Positions 37,026-58,313 of a stretch of DNA of 64,000 bases are shown in pieces. Position 1 is the stretch's first letter. The number at the start of each line of letters is the position of its first letter. The stretch lies in contig JAFSUB010000001.1 in assembly GCA_017445475.1 (NCBI GenBank), positions 14,834-78,833 on the forward strand, in the 5' to 3' direction. This DNA is from Alphaproteobacteria bacterium (lineage in GTDB: Bacteria > Pseudomonadota > Alphaproteobacteria > RF32 > CAG-239). The notes under the pieces are model-generated. The model saw nothing but the letters and a program-made list of their open reading frames with translations. It was not told where the DNA came from and searched no databases. Both the position numbers and the translations under genes were made by a program.

Positions 37026-37271
37026 TCAGTTGGAACGGCAATCATTTTTTCTTTCGTCAACAAGCCTTATTTCGATGGATTTGTGGAAATATTTCAAAGC
37101 CTCTTCAAAATTTATCCAGCCGACGCGATCTAAGCCGAGCTCAAGTCTTTCATACATGGCGGGACTTGTTTTAAGCGCCCTTGAGCAGGCGGCCATGCTT
37201 GTGTTGTTTCTTCGGCGCTCTTCAAAAAGAATACGGCCGAGCATTTTTTTGATTTGTTTTTGAATTGTCAT
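37026..37271 (-). CDS. small XRE-like HTH protein (cassette copy A)
   Basis: 81 aa; shares near-identical first ~70 aa with the ORF at 54204..54437; HTH-like LGRILFEERRRNNTSMAACSRALKTSPAMYERLELG. Confidence 0.6.
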   Translation of the reverse strand: MTIQKQIKKMLGRILFEERRRNNTSMAACSRALKTSPAMYERLELGLDRVGWINFEEALKYFHKSIEIRLVDERKNDCRSN

Positions 37272-37299
37272 AAGTAACTCCTGTTTTGTTCATGTTTCT

Positions 37300-37500
37300 A
37301 AAAAAAAACCGTTTTGAAAAAATCTCAAAACGGGGAGCTAACAAACTGTTACAGCACAGATGAGCTTATTCGCGCAAAGCCTTATATCGCCCACTCCCCA
37401 ATGTGGAGTTAACTGTAAGATGTTTGTTAAACACCGCAACCAATCGGTTGCAACGCTATTATGGGAAGATTTTTCTTAAATGTAAAGCAAAAATTTGAAG
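37300..37500 (-). ncRNA. conserved structured leader/sRNA candidate ending in intrinsic terminator (copy A)
   Basis: ~200 nt conserved with 54470..54660; hairpins ACTCC-N7-GGAGT and GCAACC-AATC-GGTTGC (copy B has compensatory GCAATC-AACC-GATTGC); minus-strand terminator CCGTTTTGA...TCAAAACGG plus 9 U, 29 nt before the XRE start. Confidence 0.35.
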
Positions 37501-37547
37501 ATGCTCTGATTTTTGCTTTGCAACAAAAGCATAACGGTTGTTGTGCA
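37497..37547. repeat. dispersed ~50-bp repeat (left flank of cargo A)
   Basis: GAAGATGCTCTGATTTTTGCTTTGCAACAAAAGCATAACGGTTGTTG recurs at 39030..39080; related copies at 54674..54711 and 57462..57493. Confidence 0.5.
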
Positions 37548-37635: not shown

Positions 37636-38835
37636 TTATATCAGCAGCCAATCCAAAACATTTATTTGTTTAATTCCGTTGTGCGATGTAACGGGGATCG
37701 GATCCATTGTCAGTAAATATTTCGGATTATGGTCATTAATCAGTTGCAGAGGTCTTAATTCGCGTTCCAATACATTTTGTTCAACGGCCGTCCATGCAAC
37801 CTGATAATGTTCAACATCAGTTCCTTGCAAGGCCGTAAAATCAACCTCGTATTCACCGACTTTACCCACAAACACTTTATATCCGCGGCGTATCAGTTCA
37901 AGAAACACAATATTTTCCAAAATATGGCCGTAATCTCGGCTTGTTTGTCCGACAAGCAAATTTCTTAAAGCTATGTCGGCGATATAATATTTTTCACCGG
38001 TTTTCAAATATTCTTTACCCTTAATATCATAGCGAGGGACAGAATATAGAAAATAACAATCTTTAAGCGATGAAATATAACTATCTACCGTGTGTGTGGA
38101 TATGTCCTGACCGTCAGATGACATTGTATCGGCAATTTTTTTAATGGAAACCAAATTACCGATGTTGTCGCTCATAAATTTTGCAACGCGTTTTAAGGCT
38201 GAAGTGTCCGTCAAGCCTCGTCTGTCCGCAATATCTTTAACAATAATTGTGTTGTAAAGGGCATCCAAATAACCTGAAATGTTTTTTGAATCGCCGTTGA
38301 GTAATAACGTAAAAGGAAATGAACTGTCCGTTATATATTTTTGAAACAAATCCGACTTGCTTAAATTTTCAAAAGCTTGACGATATTCTTTGAGGGAAAA
38401 AGGTTGCATTCCGATTTCTATATAACGGCCGGAAAGCAACGTTGCCAGCTCTCCCGAGAGCAAATAAGAATTAGACCCCGTTAAATATAAGTCAACATTT
38501 TTTTTAACAAACAATGCGTCCACGGTTTTTTGAAAATCCGGAACATATTGAATTTCATCTAAGAGGACATAATTCATCTTGTCTGCAATAAGGCGTTCTT
38601 TGATATGTTGATACAATTTTTTATGATTCGTTAAATCTTGATATTTTTCGTCCTCAGATTCTTCAAAATTTATGCGAATGATTTGGTTTTGCTCGACACC
38701 GCTGTTAAGCAAATATGCCTCAAACAAATCAAAAAGGGTTGATTTTCCCGAGCGGCGAATGCCGGTTATAATTTTAATAATGGGTTTGTTTTTAAGGCTT
38801 ATCAGCCTGTCAATATATTCTTGGCGCTTTATCAT
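37636..38835 (-). CDS. AAA+ ATPase of the DUF4143 (AAA_14) family
   Basis: Walker A GIRRSGKST, Walker B VLLDEIQ, C-terminal DUF4143-like region; flanked by direct repeats. Confidence 0.75.
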   Translation of the reverse strand: MIKRQEYIDRLISLKNKPIIKIITGIRRSGKSTLFDLFEAYLLNSGVEQNQIIRINFEESEDEKYQDLTNHKKLYQHIKERLIADKMNYVLLDEIQYVPDFQKTVDALFVKKNVDLYLTGSNSYLLSGELATLLSGRYIEIGMQPFSLKEYRQAFENLSKSDLFQKYITDSSFPFTLLLNGDSKNISGYLDALYNTIIVKDIADRRGLTDTSALKRVAKFMSDNIGNLVSIKKIADTMSSDGQDISTHTVDSYISSLKDCYFLYSVPRYDIKGKEYLKTGEKYYIADIALRNLLVGQTSRDYGHILENIVFLELIRRGYKVFVGKVGEYEVDFTALQGTDVEHYQVAWTAVEQNVLERELRPLQLINDHNPKYLLTMDPIPVTSHNGIKQINVLDWLLI

Positions 38836-39029
38836 GAAACCTCCTTATTTAAAGATAATAATCAAAAAATTTGAAAAGTAAAACTAAAAGTTTATAAAAA
38901 TAATAAAAATTAGAAATTATTTTCAAATTATGGTCAACTCTTCGGACGGTGCGTCAGCGCATCAAGGGAACTCACCTTTGAAGCGTCGCACCTTTGGTGC
39001 ATATACGCTTCTGCTTTGTTATATAAAAT

Positions 39030-39080
39030 AGAAGATGCTCTGATTTTTGCTTTGCAAAAAAGGCATAACGGTTGTTGCGG
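39030..39080. repeat. dispersed ~50-bp repeat (right flank of cargo A)
   Basis: Near-identical to 37497..37547. Confidence 0.5.
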
Positions 39081-51497: not shown

Positions 51498-52583
51498 ATG
51501 TTTAAGACGCCGTTTTTTAAGAAGAAAAAACCCTTTTTAAAAAAAGATTTGAAACAAGCGCCCAATTATGCGGCGATTGATTTGGGCACAAATTCGTGCC
51601 GTTTGGTGATTGCGACGCCGACACCGACCTCGTTTCACGTTGTTGAAACGTTTTCTAAAATTACACGATTGGGCGAGGGCATCATCAAAGATAACGAACT
51701 TTCCAAAGCGGCCATGCGGCGCACAGTGAACACCTTAAAAGTTTGCAAAAGCGTGATGGACGAATATGCGCCAATTACCCGTTCAAGGTTTGTGGCAACG
51801 GCAGCCTGCCGAAGGGCAAAAAACTGTGCCGAGTTTTTGGCAATGGTTCAAAAAGAGGCGGGCATTAAGCTTGAAATTATTTCGCCGCAGGAAGAAGCAA
51901 GACTTGCCGTTGTCGGGTGTGTGCCGCTTCTAAACCGCAACATTAAGCGTGCGCTTATTTTTGACATCGGCGGCGGTTCAACGGAAATTTCACTTGCGCG
52001 TGTAACCGAAGAAGGCAAAACATTTATTGAAGGGTACGTTTCGCTTCCCTACGGCGTTGTTACAATCTCGGAAGCTTTTCCGAAGCAGGAAATGACCAAT
52101 TTGGCCTATAACACCATTATTGAACGCACACACGGCATTTTGGCGGAGTTTGATGAAAAATACGGTGTGTATGAAGGCATTAAAAATCAAGAAATACAGG
52201 TTATCGGAACATCGGGAACCGTAACGGTTTTGGGCGCGGTTCATTTGGGGCTTGTGCGCTATAACCGTTCGGCGGTTGACGGCCTTTCAATTTCGGGTGC
52301 AGATGTTGAAAACGTGATTAACAAAATTAAAAATATGGGTGATGCCGGCAGGCGTAAACATCGGTGTATCGGTCCGATGAAGGCTGATTTAACCATTTCC
52401 GGTTGTGCCATTATCGAAGCACTGTTGACAATTTTCCCCATCTCGGAAATTACAATTGCAGACCGAGGAATCCGCGAGGGAATTTTGCTTGATATGATTC
52501 ACAATGAAAAGCGTGACAGAAAACATAAAAAGAAAAATTTTAAATCACATCCGCATCACAAAAGGAGAGCAAATGAAGGATAA
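51498..52583 (+). CDS. Ppx/GppA-family phosphatase (paralog 1, actin-like domains only)
   Basis: AIDLGTNSCRLVIA, DIGGGSTE, EALL motifs; no HD domain; basic C-terminal tail. Confidence 0.75.
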   Translation: MFKTPFFKKKKPFLKKDLKQAPNYAAIDLGTNSCRLVIATPTPTSFHVVETFSKITRLGEGIIKDNELSKAAMRRTVNTLKVCKSVMDEYAPITRSRFVATAACRRAKNCAEFLAMVQKEAGIKLEIISPQEEARLAVVGCVPLLNRNIKRALIFDIGGGSTEISLARVTEEGKTFIEGYVSLPYGVVTISEAFPKQEMTNLAYNTIIERTHGILAEFDEKYGVYEGIKNQEIQVIGTSGTVTVLGAVHLGLVRYNRSAVDGLSISGADVENVINKIKNMGDAGRRKHRCIGPMKADLTISGCAIIEALLTIFPISEITIADRGIREGILLDMIHNEKRDRKHKKKNFKSHPHHKRRANEG

Positions 52584-53541
52584 AGTTCTTGCGAGCATTG
52601 ATTTGGGTTCCAATTCTTGTCGCCTCAGAATTGCAACGCTTGAGGGCAATCTCCTTTATAAAGATTCGAAGCCGACCAAATTGGGCGAGGGATTGTTTCA
52701 AACCAAAAAATTGAGTGCGGATTCTATGAACCGTGCACTTGCGGTTTTTCAAGATTTTGCGGAAAAGATGAAGGCACACCATGTTGAAGCCTATCGGGCA
52801 ATTGCAACGGCGGCCTGTCGAATGGCGCAAAACGGGAAGATGTTTGCAAACGAAGTTGAAAAGCAAACAGGTATTAAAATTGAAATTATCGACACAAAAG
52901 AGGAAGCAAGGCTCAACTTAAAAGGTGCTTTGTTCAACGCTCCGAAAGAAAGCGAATATGTTGTGGTTTATGATTTAGGCGGCGCCTCAACCGAAATAAC
53001 GCTTGCAAAAAACAACGCTTCGTGCGAAATTTTGCACACCATCTCAATTCCGCTCGGTGCGCGCAACGCTTCAGAAGGCTATGATTTGCGGGAGTTTCAG
53101 CTTAAAAAAGCTCAAAAGCTTTCAGACGATATTAAAGGTTATGTTCAAGCTTTTATTGAAGATTCACACTTAAAAGATTATCAGGATAAATGTTGCCTGA
53201 TTGCAACCTCAAGCACGCCCTTGCGCCTTTGCTCAATGGTTCATCACGACGGTTTTTATGCGCGCGAAAAAAATGATGGTAAAATCTTAAAAACAACCGA
53301 TGTAGACAAGGCCGTTCAAACCTGCTGTGAAATGAGCCTTGCCGAACGCGCAAATTCGCCGTATGTCGGAAGCGACAGAGCTTCTGTTTTTGTGGCAGCC
53401 TGTGTGATTTTTAAAAGCATTTACGACACGCTCGGTTTTAGAGAGCTGACCGTATCATTCAAGGGGGCGCAATACGCCATGTTAGAGGAGTTAAGAAATG
53501 CCGAAACTGACAAAGTCCGCAAAGCTTGTTCGCGGTCATAA
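52573..53541 (+). CDS. Ppx/GppA-family phosphatase (paralog 2)
   Basis: SIDLGSNSCRLRIA, DLGGASTE; ATG at 52573 with AAAGGAGAG RBS overlaps the end of paralog 1. Confidence 0.75.
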   Translation: MKDKVLASIDLGSNSCRLRIATLEGNLLYKDSKPTKLGEGLFQTKKLSADSMNRALAVFQDFAEKMKAHHVEAYRAIATAACRMAQNGKMFANEVEKQTGIKIEIIDTKEEARLNLKGALFNAPKESEYVVVYDLGGASTEITLAKNNASCEILHTISIPLGARNASEGYDLREFQLKKAQKLSDDIKGYVQAFIEDSHLKDYQDKCCLIATSSTPLRLCSMVHHDGFYAREKNDGKILKTTDVDKAVQTCCEMSLAERANSPYVGSDRASVFVAACVIFKSIYDTLGFRELTVSFKGAQYAMLEELRNAETDKVRKACSRS

Positions 53542-54190
53542 GAGTTTGACGGTTCGCGTTAAAACTTCAAAATATCGAAAACCGTCGTCAAACCGCTGGC
53601 TTGAGCGCCAATTAAACGACCCGTATGTTGCCGAGGCGCAAAAGCAGGGCTATCGTTCACGCGCCGCATTTAAGCTGATTCAGCTTGATGAAAAATACAA
53701 GTTTTTGCAAAAAGGAAAAATCATTGTTGATTTGGGGTGCGCCCCCGGCGGGTGGACTCAGGTTGCGGCTATCAAAAATAAGGGCTCGGGGCAGATTGTT
53801 GGTATTGACATTTTGGAGACCTCGCCAATTGAGGGAGCAACGCTTATATGTGAGGATTTCACATCAAAAGATGCGCCCGAAAAATTAAAATCGCTTTTAG
53901 AAGGTAAGGCAGACGTTGTTTTAAGCGATATGGCGGCCAACACCACCGGACACCAGCAAACCGACCATTTGCGCACGATTGCGCTTGTTGAGGCGGCGTA
54001 TGAATTTGCCAAAGAGGTTTTAAAAGAAGGCGGCATTTTTATTGCCAAAGTTTTTCAAGGCGGAACGGAGGGCGAACTTTTGGCCGATATGAAAAAGAAT
54101 TTTGCAAAAGTGTCGCATTTTAAGCCCGATGCCAGCCGTCAGAGCTCGCCGGAAACATACGTTGTTGCCGAAGGGTTTAAGGGCATATAA
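53498..54190 (+). CDS. rlmE: 23S rRNA (uridine2552-2'-O)-methyltransferase RlmE/FtsJ
   Basis: SRAAFKL, DLGCAPGGW, DMAAN motifs. Confidence 0.9.
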   Translation: MPKLTKSAKLVRGHKSLTVRVKTSKYRKPSSNRWLERQLNDPYVAEAQKQGYRSRAAFKLIQLDEKYKFLQKGKIIVDLGCAPGGWTQVAAIKNKGSGQIVGIDILETSPIEGATLICEDFTSKDAPEKLKSLLEGKADVVLSDMAANTTGHQQTDHLRTIALVEAAYEFAKEVLKEGGIFIAKVFQGGTEGELLADMKKNFAKVSHFKPDASRQSSPETYVVAEGFKGI

Positions 54191-54203: not shown

Positions 54204-54437
54204 TTATTTTTGTTTTAGCTCGTCAACAAGCCTTATTTCGATGGATTTATGGAAATACTTCAAGGCCTCTTCAAACTTTTTCCAGCCGACGCGATCTAAG
54301 CCGAGCTCAATTCTTTCATAGGTGATGGGTTTTATTTTAAGCGCCTTGCAGCAGGCGGCGGTGTATGTGTTGTTTCTTTGGCGCTCTTCAAAAAGAATAC
54401 GGCCGAGCATTTTTTTAATTTGTTTTTGAATCGTCAT
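54204..54437 (-). CDS. small XRE-like HTH protein (cassette copy B)
   Basis: 77 aa, paralog of 37026..37271 (MTIQKQIKKMLGRILFEER...); C-terminus diverges at the junction with the core gene. Confidence 0.6.
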   Translation of the reverse strand: MTIQKQIKKMLGRILFEERQRNNTYTAACCKALKIKPITYERIELGLDRVGWKKFEEALKYFHKSIEIRLVDELKQK

Positions 54438-54469
54438 TGTTTTTAACTCCTGTTTTGTTCATGTTTCTC

Positions 54470-54660
54470 AAAAAAAACCGTTTTGGAAAAAAATCTCAAA
54501 ACGGGGAGCTCAAAAACTGTCCTAATACAGATTTCCTTATTCGCGCAAAGCCTTATTTCGGAAACTCCCCAATGCGGAGTTGAAATTAGGAAGATGTTTT
54601 TGAAACACCGCAATCAACCGATTGCAAGGTTATTATGGAAGATTTTGAAGAAATGTAAAG
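54470..54660 (-). ncRNA. conserved structured leader/sRNA candidate ending in intrinsic terminator (copy B)
   Basis: Same element as 37300..37500: AACTCC-N7-GGAGTT hairpin, GCAATC-AACC-GATTGC hairpin, terminator CCGTTTTGG...CAAAACGG plus U-run just upstream of the XRE start. Confidence 0.35.
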
Positions 54661-54673
54661 AAAAAAAATTGAA

Positions 54674-54711
54674 GATGCCTTGAAGTTTTTGAGCGCGCTC
54701 AAAAAATAGGC
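54674..54711. repeat. dispersed repeat (left flank of cargo B)
   Basis: GATGCCTTGAAGTTTT (16/16 with 57478..57493), palindrome GAGCGCGCTC, then GGCATGACGGGTT; second partial copy GCCATGACGGGTTGTG at 54758..54773. Confidence 0.45.
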
Positions 54712-54806
54712 ATGACGGGTTTTATAGATGTTTTGAATTTTTCGCTTAAGCGAAAAACAGCCATGACGGGTTGTGCTGTTTTTTCTCCATTCCGAACGAA
54801 AACAAA

Positions 54807-56009
54807 TTAAATATTTCTTTCTTTTTTCTGTTCGGTAATATTTATTTGTGATGATACTTGTTTTTGAGAAGTTTTATCGGGAAACGTATAGTTTATCCCA
54901 AGTGGATTGCTGGCCAACAACATACTGTCTGAATTGACGTATCTTGATATGAAAGCATCAATACCTAATCCGAAACTCATAGATTTAGGCAGTCCCCACT
55001 TCATATAAGACATTTCGTTTACATATTCCAAATTATTGTTGTTCTTCTGTTCTTGTAAAGCTTCCTTAACTTTACTATAATCTGTTTCATCACAATAACC
55101 ATGAGCCGTTAATCGACCATTTATATACCATTTAATTTCTGTTTTTAATCCGTTTTCATCAGGTGCGACAAGCGGATTTGAAACCGGCGCGTTAATCAAT
55201 ATTGTATTTTTAAACTCCGGAATTCTTCTTTGATATTGAATGCCTAATTCTGCCAAATTATTATAGTCAACTATATCAGGCGTCCCTTTCTCCGGTGTTT
55301 CAAAACCGTATTTCTTGCACAAAGTACTCATAATTCTACTTACTTTTGTCATGAATCTTAAAAGCTGAGGTTTTGTATAATCTAAAGAAACGAATTCCAA
55401 AGTGCACATTTCCGGAACATGGTTTGCGTCGGAATTTTTGTTGTAAAATACACTCCCGATTGTATAAACGGATTTTAATAAAATCGCGGCTGTTTGTTTA
55501 AGTTGATTTTCCGGAGTAATGCGCAAATAAACAGGCTCTTTATCAAACTGTCCCTTGGTTTGAAACGGAGGTATGGCAGAGCCGGTTCTTTCTCTTTCCA
55601 AGACTTTACAGGGTGTATTTTCAAATCCGTCTTTATCTAAAAGCTCGGAAATTTTCTGTATCAGTTCTTGCTTAAGCCGATAAACATCAATTTGCTTGCC
55701 TGCATTGCGGGCATTGCTTTGGGCATAGCGCTCACAGCCTTTAGAATTATTCGGTAAATTTTTAAACTCGTCCCATGTTTGACACGGACTTACCCACAAA
55801 ATTCTCTCAATTTTTAATACATTTTCTCCACTTTGGTTTTTTATGAATTTTCCGGTAGCGGCAAAACAATCTCCTTTTTTTAAAGCTTTCTTGTGATATA
55901 GATTTTTATCAAAAACAATTTGTTCCTTTTTACCATCACTTGTATATGTTTCGGCAAAAATCACGGATTTATGCTTCCTTACATTCAATATTCGAAAGAT
56001 TTTTTTCAT
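54807..56009 (-). CDS. class II (LysRS/AsnRS-subclass IIb-like) aminoacyl-tRNA synthetase paralog with N-terminal OB fold; motif 2/3 arginines apparently substituted
   Basis: Aligns to LysRS blocks: FENTPCKVLERERTGSAIPPF, VFYNKNSDANHVPEMCTLEF versus FRNEGISVRHNPEFTMMEL (R to Y, E to K), SFGLGIDAF versus GLGIGIDR (R to A); AT-rich relative to neighbours. Confidence 0.6.
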   Translation of the reverse strand: MKKIFRILNVRKHKSVIFAETYTSDGKKEQIVFDKNLYHKKALKKGDCFAATGKFIKNQSGENVLKIERILWVSPCQTWDEFKNLPNNSKGCERYAQSNARNAGKQIDVYRLKQELIQKISELLDKDGFENTPCKVLERERTGSAIPPFQTKGQFDKEPVYLRITPENQLKQTAAILLKSVYTIGSVFYNKNSDANHVPEMCTLEFVSLDYTKPQLLRFMTKVSRIMSTLCKKYGFETPEKGTPDIVDYNNLAELGIQYQRRIPEFKNTILINAPVSNPLVAPDENGLKTEIKWYINGRLTAHGYCDETDYSKVKEALQEQKNNNNLEYVNEMSYMKWGLPKSMSFGLGIDAFISRYVNSDSMLLASNPLGINYTFPDKTSQKQVSSQINITEQKKERNI

Positions 56010-56023
56010 GATTTTTTACCTTT

Positions 56024-56731
56024 TTAGGGAATTTGTTTAACCTTACGGTCATCTCTGCAAGTCATGATTTTTATCGAACCATCTTGAAAAACCAGTGCAG
56101 TGCAATCATCCATACTCCATCCTTGTATGTTTTTTTGTTTCAGTTTGTCATTTATCCTTTGTTTCTCATCTTCAGTCAGCCAGTCGTAATGTGGGACACC
56201 AAATCCTTTAATAAATCCCAAACCTCTAACCAAATCGAGTTGCTCAATATTTTCTATATCATCCATATTATCGTAATATTCAAACCAGCAAATGGCGCCT
56301 GCAGAGATACCGGCTAAAACAATTCCCTTTTGGTAGGCTTCGTATAAGATATCGCCAAGTTTATATTTTTGCCAAATGTTCAGCATGGTTGTTGTATCTC
56401 CGCCACCGACATAAATAATATCACTTGAAAATATTTTGTTTCTAATTTCTTGTATGGAAATTGATTCCTCTACCAAATTTAAAGGTTCAACGGAATGGCA
56501 CCCCAAACGTCCCTTAAAATGATTCTCTACAACTTCCAGATAACTTTTTTTATCACCTGAAGCCGTGCCGACAAAAAGCATTTTAGGATGCTTTTTTCCC
56601 GTTGCATCAACAATAAAACGATCAATCAGAGTTGTTTCCACGTCTGTTTGCACAGAAGTACCGTCCGGCAAAACCTTTATTCTTCCTATTTCCCCTCCAC
56701 CGACAGCTATAATCATTTTTTTCATTTTCAT
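56024..56731 (-). CDS. S51-family peptidase (peptidase E / cyanophycinase-like)
   Basis: IYVGGGDTTTML, nucleophile block LAGISAGAICW, His in VPHYDW; 15-bp gap to the aaRS-like gene. Confidence 0.7.
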   Translation of the reverse strand: MKMKKMIIAVGGGEIGRIKVLPDGTSVQTDVETTLIDRFIVDATGKKHPKMLFVGTASGDKKSYLEVVENHFKGRLGCHSVEPLNLVEESISIQEIRNKIFSSDIIYVGGGDTTTMLNIWQKYKLGDILYEAYQKGIVLAGISAGAICWFEYYDNMDDIENIEQLDLVRGLGFIKGFGVPHYDWLTEDEKQRINDKLKQKNIQGWSMDDCTALVFQDGSIKIMTCRDDRKVKQIP

Positions 56732-56749
56732 TGCCTTTAATTATTGTTT

Positions 56750-57343
56750 TTACCTGTTTTTTGTTTTTCGATAATTGTATAAATCTTCAAAAATTTTTGT
56801 ATTTTGTCTTTCACGCTTTTTTAAATATTCTTTCACTTGTTCAGCCCGCTCTGCAACAGAGCCTGCCACCAAATTATATTTTATTTTATGATGATTCATA
56901 AATTCTATTATTTGTTCATGTAAAATATCTTTGGTTCCCTCATCTCCACGCATCATACTGGTATCAAATGCAATATGCGGATCACACACAAAAACAACAT
57001 CTTGTGTTTTGTAAAATTCTAACGCTCTTTCTTTGAGCTCGGGAAATTCTCTGCCAAACGAATATTTATTTCCCAAATAAAAGATTAACGGTCCGCTGTC
57101 GATAAATAAATATTTTTGTGCTTTTTTTTCCAAAATTTCGATGTCATAATTTTGCAAATCGGCTGCCTCAATAAAAACATCGTTCGTAATTTGTGCAATG
57201 CCTATGCCACGTTTGGTCATAACATCACGCATACGTTCTGGAGCGTGAGGCTCACCATACATGTCGGCACAATAGCGACACAGAGTAGATTTACCCGTGC
57301 TTGACGCTCCTGAAAAATTAATTTTTAAGATTTTATTACTCAT
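56750..57343 (-). CDS. P-loop NTPase / small-molecule-kinase-like protein (NadR-kinase/AAA_28-like)
   Basis: Walker A INFSGASSTGKSTL near N-terminus, Walker-B-like LFIDSG; 197 aa; 18-bp gap to the peptidase gene. Confidence 0.55.
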   Translation of the reverse strand: MSNKILKINFSGASSTGKSTLCRYCADMYGEPHAPERMRDVMTKRGIGIAQITNDVFIEAADLQNYDIEILEKKAQKYLFIDSGPLIFYLGNKYSFGREFPELKERALEFYKTQDVVFVCDPHIAFDTSMMRGDEGTKDILHEQIIEFMNHHKIKYNLVAGSVAERAEQVKEYLKKRERQNTKIFEDLYNYRKTKNR

Positions 57344-57461
57344 TTTTTGTTTGTCCGTAACATTGCCGTAATGATATCCTAAACAAATATTTTTGTCAAC
57401 ATATATTTACAAATCGATTAAATAATTATGGAATAATTTCTTAGATTTTGGTTTGTTATAT

Positions 57462-57493
57462 TGGCATGACGAGTGGTGGATGCCTTGAAGTTT
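57462..57493. repeat. dispersed repeat (right flank of cargo B)
   Basis: GGCATGACGAGTGG followed by GATGCCTTGAAGTTTT, matching the left-flank elements in rearranged order. Confidence 0.45.
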
Positions 57494-57569
57494 TCAAATA
57501 ATGCTTGATATTTGCTTTAAAATGTATCATATTTGCTCACAAATCAGTGATGAATTGGAAAAAAGGAAA

Positions 57570-58313
57570 ATGGAAAAAAAAGAAAAGAAAAAGGAAAGTG
57601 TGTGGGATACCCTTAAAACAATTGTATACGCCATTTTAATTGCGCTTTTAATCAGAAGTTTGTTTTTTGAGCCGTTTCGCATTCCCTCGGGTTCGATGTA
57701 TCCAACATTGGAAGTCGGCGATTATCTGTTTGTTTCAAAATATACTTACGGTTATTCCAAACACTCGTTTCCGTTCAGTTTGGCGCCGATTAAGGGGCGG
57801 ATTTTTGCAAAAAAGCCTAAGCGCGGGGATATTGTCGTTTTTAAATATCCCAAAGACAACCGCACGGATTTTATCAAACGCATCATCGGACTTGAAGGCG
57901 ATACAATCCAAATGAGCCGCGGAAGGCTTTATATCAACGGCGAGCTTGTTGATCGCGAGCCGGTCGGAAAATATGTTTTAAGCGAATATGTTGTGCGTCC
58001 CGAGCAGTATGAAGAATATGTCGAAACACTGCCGGAAGGCTTGAAACACCGTATTTTGGAAATTTCAGATTATGAAAGCAAGGTTGATAATATGTCCAAA
58101 ATCGTTGTTCCGGAAGGCCATTATTTTGTGATGGGCGACAACCGCGACCGCTCGGACGACAGCCGTGTGCATGTCGGCTTTGTGCCCGAAGAAAATTTGG
58201 TGGGCAAGGCGCGGTTTTTGTTTTTTTCACACAACGACAAAGCAAAATGGTATAAACCGTGGACATGGCCGAAAGCCATACGATATTCAAAAATTTTCAG
58301 CACCCTTGAATAG
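57570..58313 (+). CDS. lepB: signal peptidase I
   Basis: Catalytic Ser block IPSGSMYPTL, GDNRDRSDDSR box E; ATG at 57570 with AAGGA RBS. Confidence 0.9.
   Translation: MEKKEKKKESVWDTLKTIVYAILIALLIRSLFFEPFRIPSGSMYPTLEVGDYLFVSKYTYGYSKHSFPFSLAPIKGRIFAKKPKRGDIVVFKYPKDNRTDFIKRIIGLEGDTIQMSRGRLYINGELVDREPVGKYVLSEYVVRPEQYEEYVETLPEGLKHRILEISDYESKVDNMSKIVVPEGHYFVMGDNRDRSDDSRVHVGFVPEENLVGKARFLFFSHNDKAKWYKPWTWPKAIRYSKIFSTLE

Follow-up and report, generated by a model that had tools for sequence, protein, structure and literature searches.

The window analysed here, a stretch of 64,000 nucleotides (42% GC) from an alphaproteobacterium (GCA_017445475.1, contig JAFSUB010000001.1), carries two related blocks of DNA, near 37 kb (copy A) and near 54 kb (copy B), in each of which a promoter and a conserved non-coding leader precede a small gene for a predicted XRE/Cro-fold helix-turn-helix (HTH) protein. 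Copy B lies between rlmE and an operon for an aminoacyl-tRNA-synthetase-like protein, a peptidase and a kinase-like protein (cargo B), and copy A adjoins an ATPase gene (cargo A). We regard the block at 54204-54659 as one copy of a ~0.45-kb regulatory module, made up of promoter, attenuator leader and small regulator, and the adjoining operon as an accessory segment placed by recombination through repeats; taken as a whole, this reading is in our judgement moderately probable.

A duplicated module

Self-BLAST of the window returned only two repeat pairs. The first, 37054-37515 against 54220-54691 (85.0% identity over 473 bp), spans the small open reading frame (ORF) and ~250 bp of non-coding DNA, and it bears out the duplicated module that an initial annotation of this DNA had described in the 37-kb and 54-kb regions. 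The second, 37491-37543 against 39025-39077 (92.5% over 53 bp), lies on either side of cargo A. A chance origin of the repeats was ruled out by the self-BLAST and by a shuffle test of the 16-mer GATGCCTTGAAGTTTT, given below. Further copies of the module exist, as had been anticipated, with at least five in GCA_017613075.1, an alphaproteobacterial metagenome-assembled genome (MAG) that is sister to the window genome, and eight protein clusters in total. The region holds no tRNA or transfer-messenger RNA gene. The parts of the module, all on the minus strand, are as follows.

54204-54437, minus: small gene, copy B, 77 aa, with a predicted XRE/Cro-type HTH fold (ORF, family alignment, AlphaFold2, Foldseek)
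54470-54631, minus: structured leader RNA, copy B; it runs from the predicted transcription start (~54625-54631) through the terminator U-run (covariance model, 228.6 bits)
54632-54659, minus: sigma-70-type promoter of the leader, TTTACA, 16-nt spacer, CATAAT (promoter scan; position kept in all paralogs)
54620-54625 / 54610-54615, minus: P1, local hairpin
54604-54609 / 54593-54598, minus: P2, local hairpin
54596-54604 / 54509-54517, minus: PL, long-range helix
54585-54591 / 54520-54526, minus: P3
54576-54580 with 54564-54570, minus: P4, ACUCC paired with the GGAGU inside the second interval
54560-54564 / 54530-54536, minus: P5
54551-54559 and 54537-54543, minus: conserved loops GAAAUAAGG and CGAAUAA
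54503-54508, minus: CUCCCC
54470-54504, minus: intrinsic terminator CCGUUUUG...CAAAACGG followed by U8, about 16 nt upstream of the ribosome-binding site (RBS) ACAGGAG at 54447-54453 (sequence, folds)
37026-37545, minus: copy A of the module, with small ORF 37026-37271, leader 37300-37457 (covariance model, 212.6 bits), terminator 37300-37333, promoter 37458-37486 and near-side hairpin unit 37491-37543

The leader is a conserved structured RNA

The leader is a conserved structured domain supported by covariation, as the riboswitch and attenuator classes require. Nine distinct aligned copies share one order of elements: a promoter (TTTACA, 16-17 nt, CATAAT), about 160 nt of conserved sequence, the hairpin CCGUUUUG...CAAAACGG with its U-run, and, about 16-20 nt further on, the RBS ACAGGAG. 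The covariance model finds only the two leader copies in the window. The terminator of copy A was called by a terminator scan, and its equivalent in copy B is seen in the sequence and in the folds. The initial annotation had already noted a conserved leader, and the conservation stands; what it missed is that this is a structured, attenuator-type RNA, which elsewhere has other genes downstream.

Covariation was tested on a 12-sequence, model-based alignment, in which 94.3% of the cells are paired and 24 of the 36 pairs have changed on both sides. When the partners are slid by 1-3 columns the paired cells drop to 39-50% and 3-10 pairs change on both sides, and none of 500 shuffles reaches the observed pairing or covariation values. 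The terminator helix (helix 6) is 96.9% paired, with six of its eight pairs changed on both sides. P3 (7-8 bp) differs in sequence in nearly every paralog and is always complementary, and cross-pairing between paralogs fails; P5 (5-6 bp) occurs as, for example, UUUCC/GGAAA, UGGGC/GCUCA and UUCUU/GAGAA. P4 (ACUCC/GGAGU) and the loops GAnAUAAGG and CGAAUAA are invariant. The long-range helix PL, which is absent from the model used to align the sequences, joins the P2 loop and 3' strand to the linker just upstream of CUCCCC and excludes the P2 hairpin; it reaches 7-10 bp in 17 of 19 sequences and is broken only in the mosaic leaders of two of the loci compared (L010 and L005). The single-sequence minimum-energy fold of copy B recovers P1, PL, P3, P4, P5 and the terminator. 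Guide-RNA-style pairing of the variable helices with the flanking hairpin units was also considered, and no complementarity was seen.

Two competing folds and a predicted attenuator

An intrinsic terminator with a competing pairing is predicted between the promoter and the start codon, which is the arrangement that defines an attenuator. The GGGGAG segment has two possible partners, ACUCC (P4) and CUCCCC, and the last two Cs of the latter start the terminator stem. Folded at full length, all seven non-mosaic leaders adopt as their minimum-energy structure a closed form (PL, P3, P4, P5) together with the terminator; folds constrained to the antiterminator (P2 plus GGGGAG:CUCCCC) lie 0.5-10 kcal/mol above it. 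In several nascent transcripts that stop before the 3' terminator strand, the antiterminator is itself the minimum-energy fold, and the RNAalifold consensus of nine leaders likewise picks GGGGAG:CUCCCC, here enclosing P5 and a CUGU/ACAG hairpin.

From these folds we envision the following process. The sigma-70-type promoter would drive a ~160-nt leader that ends in a terminator just before the RBS of the small regulator. In the closed form, a rod of PL and P3 would close a three-way junction bearing P4 (ACUCC:GGAGU) and P5, with the loops GAnAUAAGG and CGAAUAA, and would leave CUCCCC-GUUUUG free for the terminator, so that transcription stops and the regulator is not made. In the open form, the P2 hairpin and GGGGAG:CUCCCC, a fold like that of the RNA family sRNA-Xcc1, would remove the G-C base of the terminator and allow read-through into the gene. 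Which of the two forms prevails would depend on a signal, be it a small molecule, a protein or perhaps the regulator itself. More speculatively, the regulator may act on the palindromic units that stand beside both promoters.

The window leader resembles known attenuators and riboswitch platforms in its promoter-proximal structured domain, invariant loops and covarying stems, in the mutually exclusive pairings (1:2 and 3:4 versus 2:3) around a U-tailed hairpin, in occurring as a tandem in one relative and in preceding several gene classes. It differs from them in that it matches no curated riboswitch or leader family, that the genes behind it encode regulators and surface proteins rather than metabolic functions, and that its closing helices are unusually divergent among recent paralogs.

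The small gene encodes a predicted XRE/Cro-fold protein

The product of copy A (81 aa; ORF 37026-37271, minus strand) is 81% identical to that of copy B. All ten family members align without gaps through residue 73 (...EIRLVDE) and their tails differ thereafter, so that the conserved core of the copy B protein comprises residues 1-73, followed by a locus-specific LKQK tail. The near-identical first part reported by the initial annotation is thus confirmed; the divergence that it placed at the 3' end of the gene is real and not perfectly sharp, as an A-rich tail (EEKSNKNA / PRNNKNSG) is still common to several paralogs. A small slip can be seen in this part of copy A, where a 1-nt shift in an A-run (window 37026-37060 against its ortholog, L010 2044-2075) gives the tail RKNDCRSN in the window and RKK in L010. 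The median ratio of nonsynonymous to synonymous substitution (dN/dS) among the paralogs is 0.28, from which we take the small ORF to be a real gene, evidently under purifying selection.

The same annotation had labelled the protein XRE. No HTH match is found for either window protein in Pfam at E up to 0.1 or in NCBIfam, so that the label lacks a match at threshold; the predicted fold supports it. An AlphaFold2 model built from ten family members has four helices (predicted local distance difference test, pLDDT, 79.5) and the Cro/C1-type helical arrangement of the XRE family, and its top Foldseek matches are all XRE-type HTH proteins (HipB, C.BclI and ClgR; TM-score about 0.66). The top 50 matches in the Protein Data Bank (PDB) are all XRE-type HTH proteins or designed DNA binders (probability 1.0, TM-score 0.55-0.73, E 6e-3 or weaker). 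Remote homologs give sub-threshold matches to HTH_31, HTH_19 and HTH_25 (E 8e-4 to 8e-3), and two of them carry a precomputed PF13560. Matches to tetratricopeptide repeats (TPR) were dismissed in favour of the HTH fold, since they arise from the segment ALKYFHKSIEI. We predict from the model that the protein is a DNA-binding regulator of the XRE/Cro fold. It is like HipB antitoxins, the C proteins of restriction-modification (R-M) systems and ClgR in its length of about 75-80 aa, its four-helix HTH and its TM-score of about 0.66 to HipB and C.BclI, and unlike them in that the family has no Pfam HTH match at threshold, a C-terminal signature of its own and neither a toxin gene nor a restriction gene beside it.

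Among 5.8 billion proteins searched, only eight close clusters came up, from GCA_017613075.1 (five paralogs) and ruminant-gut metagenomes. A profile search of 1.8 billion cluster representatives added about twenty proteins of 73-102 aa at about 30% identity, and the wider family carries the C-terminal signature ELG..W..LL.YY.K.IEI.LVD. When GTDB species genomes were scanned with the alignment of the small protein, only two Bacteroidota stretches came up (36-38% identity, no leader); these were judged unrelated.

Distribution of the RNA and distant kinship with sRNA-Xcc1

A signature scan of metagenome contigs found 26 loci, 14 of which match the covariance model. Other gut and rumen Alphaproteobacteria also carry the RNA. 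The gene behind it in these contigs usually encodes a small XRE-like protein; elsewhere the product is a 160-aa protein of the classical HTH_3 kind, a protein resembling outer-membrane proteins or, in two cases, a secreted BspA-type LRR_5 protein. Since the RNA stands before unrelated genes, we take it to be an element that regulates in cis and not a component of any single gene family. Weaker leader copies precede more distant homologs of the small protein in L025 and L029. Neither the RNA signature nor the module DNA was matched in viral contigs, phage records or plasmid records.

A tandem arrangement was seen in one locus (L022 4617-5027, from MAG GCA_017475525.1), in which two leaders, each with its own terminator, precede a gene whose 78-aa product is a homolog of the window protein at only 30% identity. 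Upstream of these tandem leaders, at a distance of 2 kb, is a HipA/HTH pair, and an IS1-like transposase follows in the L022 assembly and not in L023.

Rfam gave no match at threshold for the whole window or for either module. In a search with the core only, the best match is sRNA-Xcc1 (RF02221), a small RNA (sRNA) family, at 54492-54573 (20.0 bits, E 0.16; gathering score 53), and the core of copy A (37321-37402) scores 16.8 bits (E 0.89), so that both copies fall below the 53-bit gathering score for membership. The fold itself agrees: the leader has the long outer helix, two hairpins and pyrimidine/U-rich tail of sRNA-Xcc1, the cmscan alignment covers model positions 1-87, and the outer helix with two hairpins equals the antiterminator conformer of the window leader. 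These sub-threshold matches suggest a distant, extended relative of sRNA-Xcc1, not a member by the Rfam definition. The likeness includes an outer helix GGGGAG:CUCCCC around a hairpin whose internal loops are rich in A (..AUA.. / GAAUAA), another, small hairpin and a linker UUUUGAG, as well as multiple copies in some genomes and a position just upstream of small genes in mobile contexts. The window RNA differs in being about twice as long, with an explicit intrinsic terminator and an extra competing 5' domain (P1, P2/PL, the 5' strand of P3, ACUCC), in having behind it a gene for an XRE-fold protein and not SymE, and in our reading of it as a leader, sRNA-Xcc1 being described in the literature as a trans-acting sRNA.

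First detected in Xanthomonas as an RNA of ~88-100 nt (PMC2996969), sRNA-Xcc1 precedes symE in the integron cassette that is most widespread in Xanthomonas and precedes an ORF6N gene in an APSE phage, and Xylella has seven copies, of which five belong to a genomic island and are spaced about 385 bp apart (bioRxiv 10.1101/2025.06.18.660453; 10.1101/2020.03.17.996009; PMC12189769). Seven high-GC loci from soil and other metagenomes (L036, L050-L053, L056 and L058) carry GGGGAGU..GAnAUAAGG..CGAAUAA with a downstream CUCCCC and score 24-33 bits to sRNA-Xcc1; they sit upstream of uncharacterised proteins, some with signal peptides resembling those of the twin-arginine translocation (Tat) pathway. 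On sequence grounds, these relatives suggest a much wider superfamily of cis-leaders.

Accessory segments bracketed by repeats

The segments that adjoin the two modules, and the repeats at their edges, are the following.

54807-56009, minus: cargo B gene 3, class II aminoacyl-tRNA-synthetase-like (LysRS/EpmA-like, 400 aa; Pfam tRNA-synt_2 2.2e-11, weak OB)
56024-56731, minus: cargo B gene 2, Peptidase_S51, cyanophycinase / PepE-like (Pfam 9.7e-39; 99.7% identical to L001)
56750-57343, minus: cargo B gene 1, AAA_28 / NadR-kinase-like P-loop protein (Pfam 6.6e-17)
57399-57371, minus: promoter of cargo B gene 1, TTGACA, 17-nt spacer, TATCAT (promoter scan, 11/12 matches)
54674-54769, plus: two tandem near-side hairpin units of cargo B, 54674-54718 (GATGCC..hairpin..GGCATGACGG) and 54727-54769 (GATGTT..hairpin..GCCATGACGG)
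57419-57494, plus: far-side boundary of cargo B, with a -10 box remnant TTCCATAATTATTTA (minus strand, 57419-57433), GGCATGACGA at 57463-57472 and GATGCCTTGAAGTTTT at 57479-57494
37636-38835, minus: cargo A, AAA_14 / DUF4143 ATPase (Pfam; GC 33-38%; 99.3% identical to L010)
39025-39077, plus: far-side hairpin unit of cargo A, which directly repeats 37491-37543 and precedes the rpmH promoter

The gene identities proposed earlier for cargo B (synthetase-like, peptidase, kinase) are upheld by Pfam and NCBIfam as tRNA-synt_2, Peptidase_S51 and AAA_28. Gene 3 matches NCBIfam lysS only in part (82 bits against a cutoff of 428), and among viral, phage and plasmid records it matches only ordinary lysS-like genes. 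Cargo A matches the PADLOC candidate defence family PDC-S01 over its full length (E 2.8e-148), which makes it a candidate phage-defence gene; PADLOC defence profiles gave no match for the small protein or cargo B.

Cargo and module together form low-GC segments (33-39%, against 43-47% in the flanks). Between strains (window against the sister strain, L001) cargo B is 99.7-99.8% identical and the flanking core is 94.5-97.4% identical; gene 3, for instance, is 99.8% identical with a local GC of 33-36%. For both cargos the range is 99.3-99.8%, against 94-99% for the core. Homology to L059, a relative of ~91% identity, ends at 54183, beside the rlmE stop (54190) where the small gene abuts, and in two other relatives rsmB or tuf follows rlmE. 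Given the low GC, the between-strain identity and the lost synteny after rlmE, the comparison supports the view that the synthetase-like/S51/AAA_28 operon, foreign in its composition, forms an accessory segment located where synteny breaks, and the rlmE junction holds up as a probable boundary of the inserted unit, as had been suggested. In L059 itself, two inverted hairpin units, a promoter and an ankyrin-repeat gene follow directly after rlmE (8700-8815), and the module and synthetase-like operon are absent.

The 16-mer GATGCCTTGAAGTTTT occurs exactly in the window at 54674 and 57479 only, on the same strand; with up to three mismatches there are nine matches against 1.9 expected, a number that none of 100 shuffles reaches. 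GGCATGACGG is found unchanged at 54709 and with one mismatch each at 54760 and 57463. Such motifs therefore bracket cargo B on both sides, as the initial annotation had stated. Its view that copy B mirrors copy A holds for the presence of repeats on both cargo sides and not for their form: the flanks of cargo A are one contiguous 53-bp direct repeat, whereas the far side of B (57463-57494) is the 3' end of one unit joined to the 5' end of the next, with no hairpin core, and sits 10 bp upstream of the predicted lepB promoter. Both near-side units of B fold as hairpins (z = -2.5). Treating the units as ordinary terminators was rejected, as the terminator scan did not call them and the copy A units fold weakly as RNA. 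A GC-rich self-complementary stretch with no Rfam match (38935-39015, GGUGCGUCAGCGCAUC...GCGUCGCACC) occupies part of the gap that separates the ATPase start from the far-side unit of cargo A.

On the near side the window has two units and L001 one, the difference being a 51-bp segment between two AACCCGTCATG repeats. The far side in L001 has a full unit and a copy of the module promoter up to its -10 box (5488-5574), 96% identical to the near-side copy in the same locus; the duplicated segment there amounts to 82-110 bp and includes the whole promoter. L001 lacks the 5' two-thirds of the kinase gene and its promoter, both of which the window keeps. The units are rare, about 10 in 356 kb, and nearly all stand beside modules. 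They recall repetitive extragenic palindromic (REP) sequences and bacterial interspersed mosaic elements (BIMEs), being intergenic hairpins of 38-45 nt with a conserved flanking motif, sometimes in inverted pairs (L059); they differ from these in their rarity and their near confinement to module neighbourhoods, and no transposase of the REP-associated tyrosine transposase (RAYT) type was seen.

Recombination and alternative explanations

Paralogous modules evidently exchange sequence with one another. The leaders of L010 and L005 are mosaics with a junction at the P2/P3 boundary, the window B protein carries an A-type LDRV patch, and L003 and L005 share the same gene and downstream flank behind different upstream genes. 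Between the window and L001 the identity of the orthologous leaders is only 80%, because helices have been replaced. Homology limits between paralogs are ragged at both the 5' and the 3' end. Since each cargo is bracketed by direct copies of the hairpin unit (and, in the sister strain, of the promoter) that normally precede the module promoter, the simplest origin would be recombination through this repeated upstream sequence, either by single-crossover integration of a circle with one copy or by local duplication. Ongoing gene conversion among the modules would fit the same picture, and a dedicated cassette recombinase would not be needed. A duplicated segment of up to 110 bp that includes the promoter makes homologous recombination the simplest reading, although a recombinase acting in trans could also have been involved. 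An 11/13 match between the 3' end of the ORF (CAACAAGCCTTAT) and the inverted start of the copy-A unit (CAACAACCGTTAT) was set aside as chance, since this part of the ORF encodes the conserved IRLVDE and the match is weaker in copy B. In L003 a 39-bp inverted repeat (92%; 1969-2007 against 8345-8383) links the 3' end of a gene for a 319-aa protein upstream of the module there with that of a zeta-toxin gene 6 kb away.

Several points weigh against the module reading. Transcription start, termination and read-through are all predicted, and model-based alignments lean towards the modelled structure. P4 and GGGGAG:CUCCCC are nearly invariant and are thus backed by conservation and not by covariation, and the antiterminator and the terminator stem have only two C residues in common. 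The closing helices diverge between paralogs far beyond the ~85% overall identity, which a simple riboswitch model fails to explain, and the downstream genes, for regulators and surface proteins, offer no metabolic clue to a ligand. Hairpin units are missing from four of the nine paralogous modules, which counts against an essential operator role, and direct repeats flank neighbour genes at only two of ~9 module loci (and their orthologs), so that any general link between module and cargo is weak.

The initial annotation spoke of a cassette architecture. An inserted, repeat-bracketed accessory segment is supported; a cassette system is not shown. In an integron-like system the units would be recombination sites, the cargos cassettes and the module a fixed platform, with a recombinase encoded elsewhere acting at an (A)ACC-CGTCATG core. 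This account draws on real likenesses to integron cassettes: direct repeats bracket both cargos, the units are imperfect palindromes, rare and nearly confined to module neighbourhoods, and their number differs between strains exactly between two AACCCGTCATG repeats, with rearrangements clustering at the far-side unit. The cargo is low in GC and has an identity of 99.7% between strains, several assemblies have contig ends at the repeats, and the nearest known RNA, sRNA-Xcc1, is typically found in integron cassettes (bioRxiv 10.1101/2025.06.18.660453). Yet a Pfam scan of 36 window ORFs (30 predicted plus 6 module and cargo proteins), which left about 26 of the 62 ORFs of at least 90 aa unscanned, several short unknowns among them, found no integrase or transposase, and no IntI-type recombinase adjoins the site among the module neighbours and these 36 ORFs. 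The units, on inspection, lack the attC consensus RYYYAAC / GTTRRRY (R''/R'), the nearest approach being GCACAAC / GTTGTGC, on one side only and off consensus. The platform promoter faces away from the cargo; single 'cassettes' only occur, at two loci only out of about nine with modules; and no empty site, alternative cargo or second module with the same cargo was seen. The 82-110-bp duplication with a whole promoter in L001 also suits homologous recombination better than a short core site. The evidence for a new integron-like cassette system is weak, and we consider such a system quite unlikely. Of the hallmarks of a transposon or miniature inverted-repeat transposable element (MITE), terminal inverted repeats and a target-site duplication were absent from the module ends in self-comparisons of 19 loci, and a transposase was absent from the 36 ORFs scanned.

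Two further explanations concern the RNA. It could be an independent trans-acting sRNA, as published for sRNA-Xcc1, whose 3' end is the terminator and next to which the small gene is expressed separately or by incidental read-through. The leader's own promoter and strong terminator would suit such an RNA, as would the best Rfam match to one detected at ~88-100 nt in Xanthomonas (PMC2996969), and the variable helices could be target-pairing regions. We hold this to be rather improbable, in view of the fact that no separate promoter is evident in the ~30 nt between terminator and RBS, that the RNA always stands directly 5' of a same-strand gene, unrelated genes included, and even in tandem before one gene, that each variable segment finds its complement in the very molecule to which it belongs, and that attenuators typically have two such conserved, alternative pairings around their terminator. 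That complementarity in cis also speaks against an addiction- or immunity-type module, in which the RNA would tightly control a harmful or repressor small protein, as proposed for sRNA-Xcc1-symE or the phage c4 / P4 CI immunity RNAs, with paralog-specific helices giving specificity and the modules stabilising or silencing adjacent accessory genes. A multicopy, lineage-restricted module that evolves fast in its pairing helices would fit, the orthologous leaders of window and L001 being only 80% identical against 94-97% for the core; so would the antitoxin HipB and R-M controllers as top Foldseek matches, the candidate defence gene in cargo A and the toxin gene symE behind sRNA-Xcc1 (bioRxiv 10.1101/2025.06.18.660453). 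No conserved partner toxin lies beside the module, however, the neighbours are unrelated at each locus, neither the small protein nor cargo B has a PADLOC match, and the RNA also precedes surface-protein genes, which leaves this explanation very unlikely in our view.

Implications

We retain the reading of a regulatory module with an attenuator leader and an adjoining accessory segment. The analysis establishes the structure of the RNA, its terminator, the constraint on the coding sequence, the class of the protein fold, the comparisons of composition and strains, and the mosaicism; which way the switch works, whether it has an effector, what DNA the regulator may bind and by which recombination the cargo arrived are inferred. 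A bolder extension, which we put forward as tentative and on balance unlikely, is that the leader belongs to a new class of cis RNA switch with an sRNA-Xcc1-fold core. In this lineage the switch would have multiplied into paralogs whose closing helices (PL, P3, P5) are kept different so that copies stay orthogonal, each controlling a small XRE-type regulator, while foreign operons, candidate defence genes included, would be captured and exchanged by homology, without a dedicated recombinase, at landing pads formed by the repeats of promoter and hairpin in front of the modules. If this were true, sRNA-Xcc1, for long regarded as an sRNA of mobile elements that acts in trans, would instead belong to the gene that follows it, as the regulatory domain at its 5' end. 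That RNA travels on integron cassettes, phages and genomic islands, and the cis-attenuator reading can be tested directly. The present leader is a well-supported structured RNA absent from Rfam at threshold, with a clear predicted on/off mechanism, and in Alphaproteobacteria of gut and rumen that have not been cultured it precedes genes for regulators and for surface proteins that face the host. Because the modules are located at synteny breakpoints and exchange sequence, they may also influence how these genomes rearrange and where accessory and defence genes come to lie.

Surrounding core genes

The module neighbours are rlmE, lepB, yacG and rpmH, and the scanned genes of the window are ordinary chromosomal ones (the dcw cluster, ftsH, pnp, aspS). 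Upstream of rlmE, two adjacent, slightly overlapping genes of the Ppx/GppA family (51498-53541, plus strand) are kept as a pair in all relatives examined. The lepB ORF is listed from 57501; the conserved protein and a better RBS point to a start near 57571 (MEKKEKKK...), so that the first ~23 codons (within 57501-57575) are probably untranslated and overlap the predicted lepB promoter.

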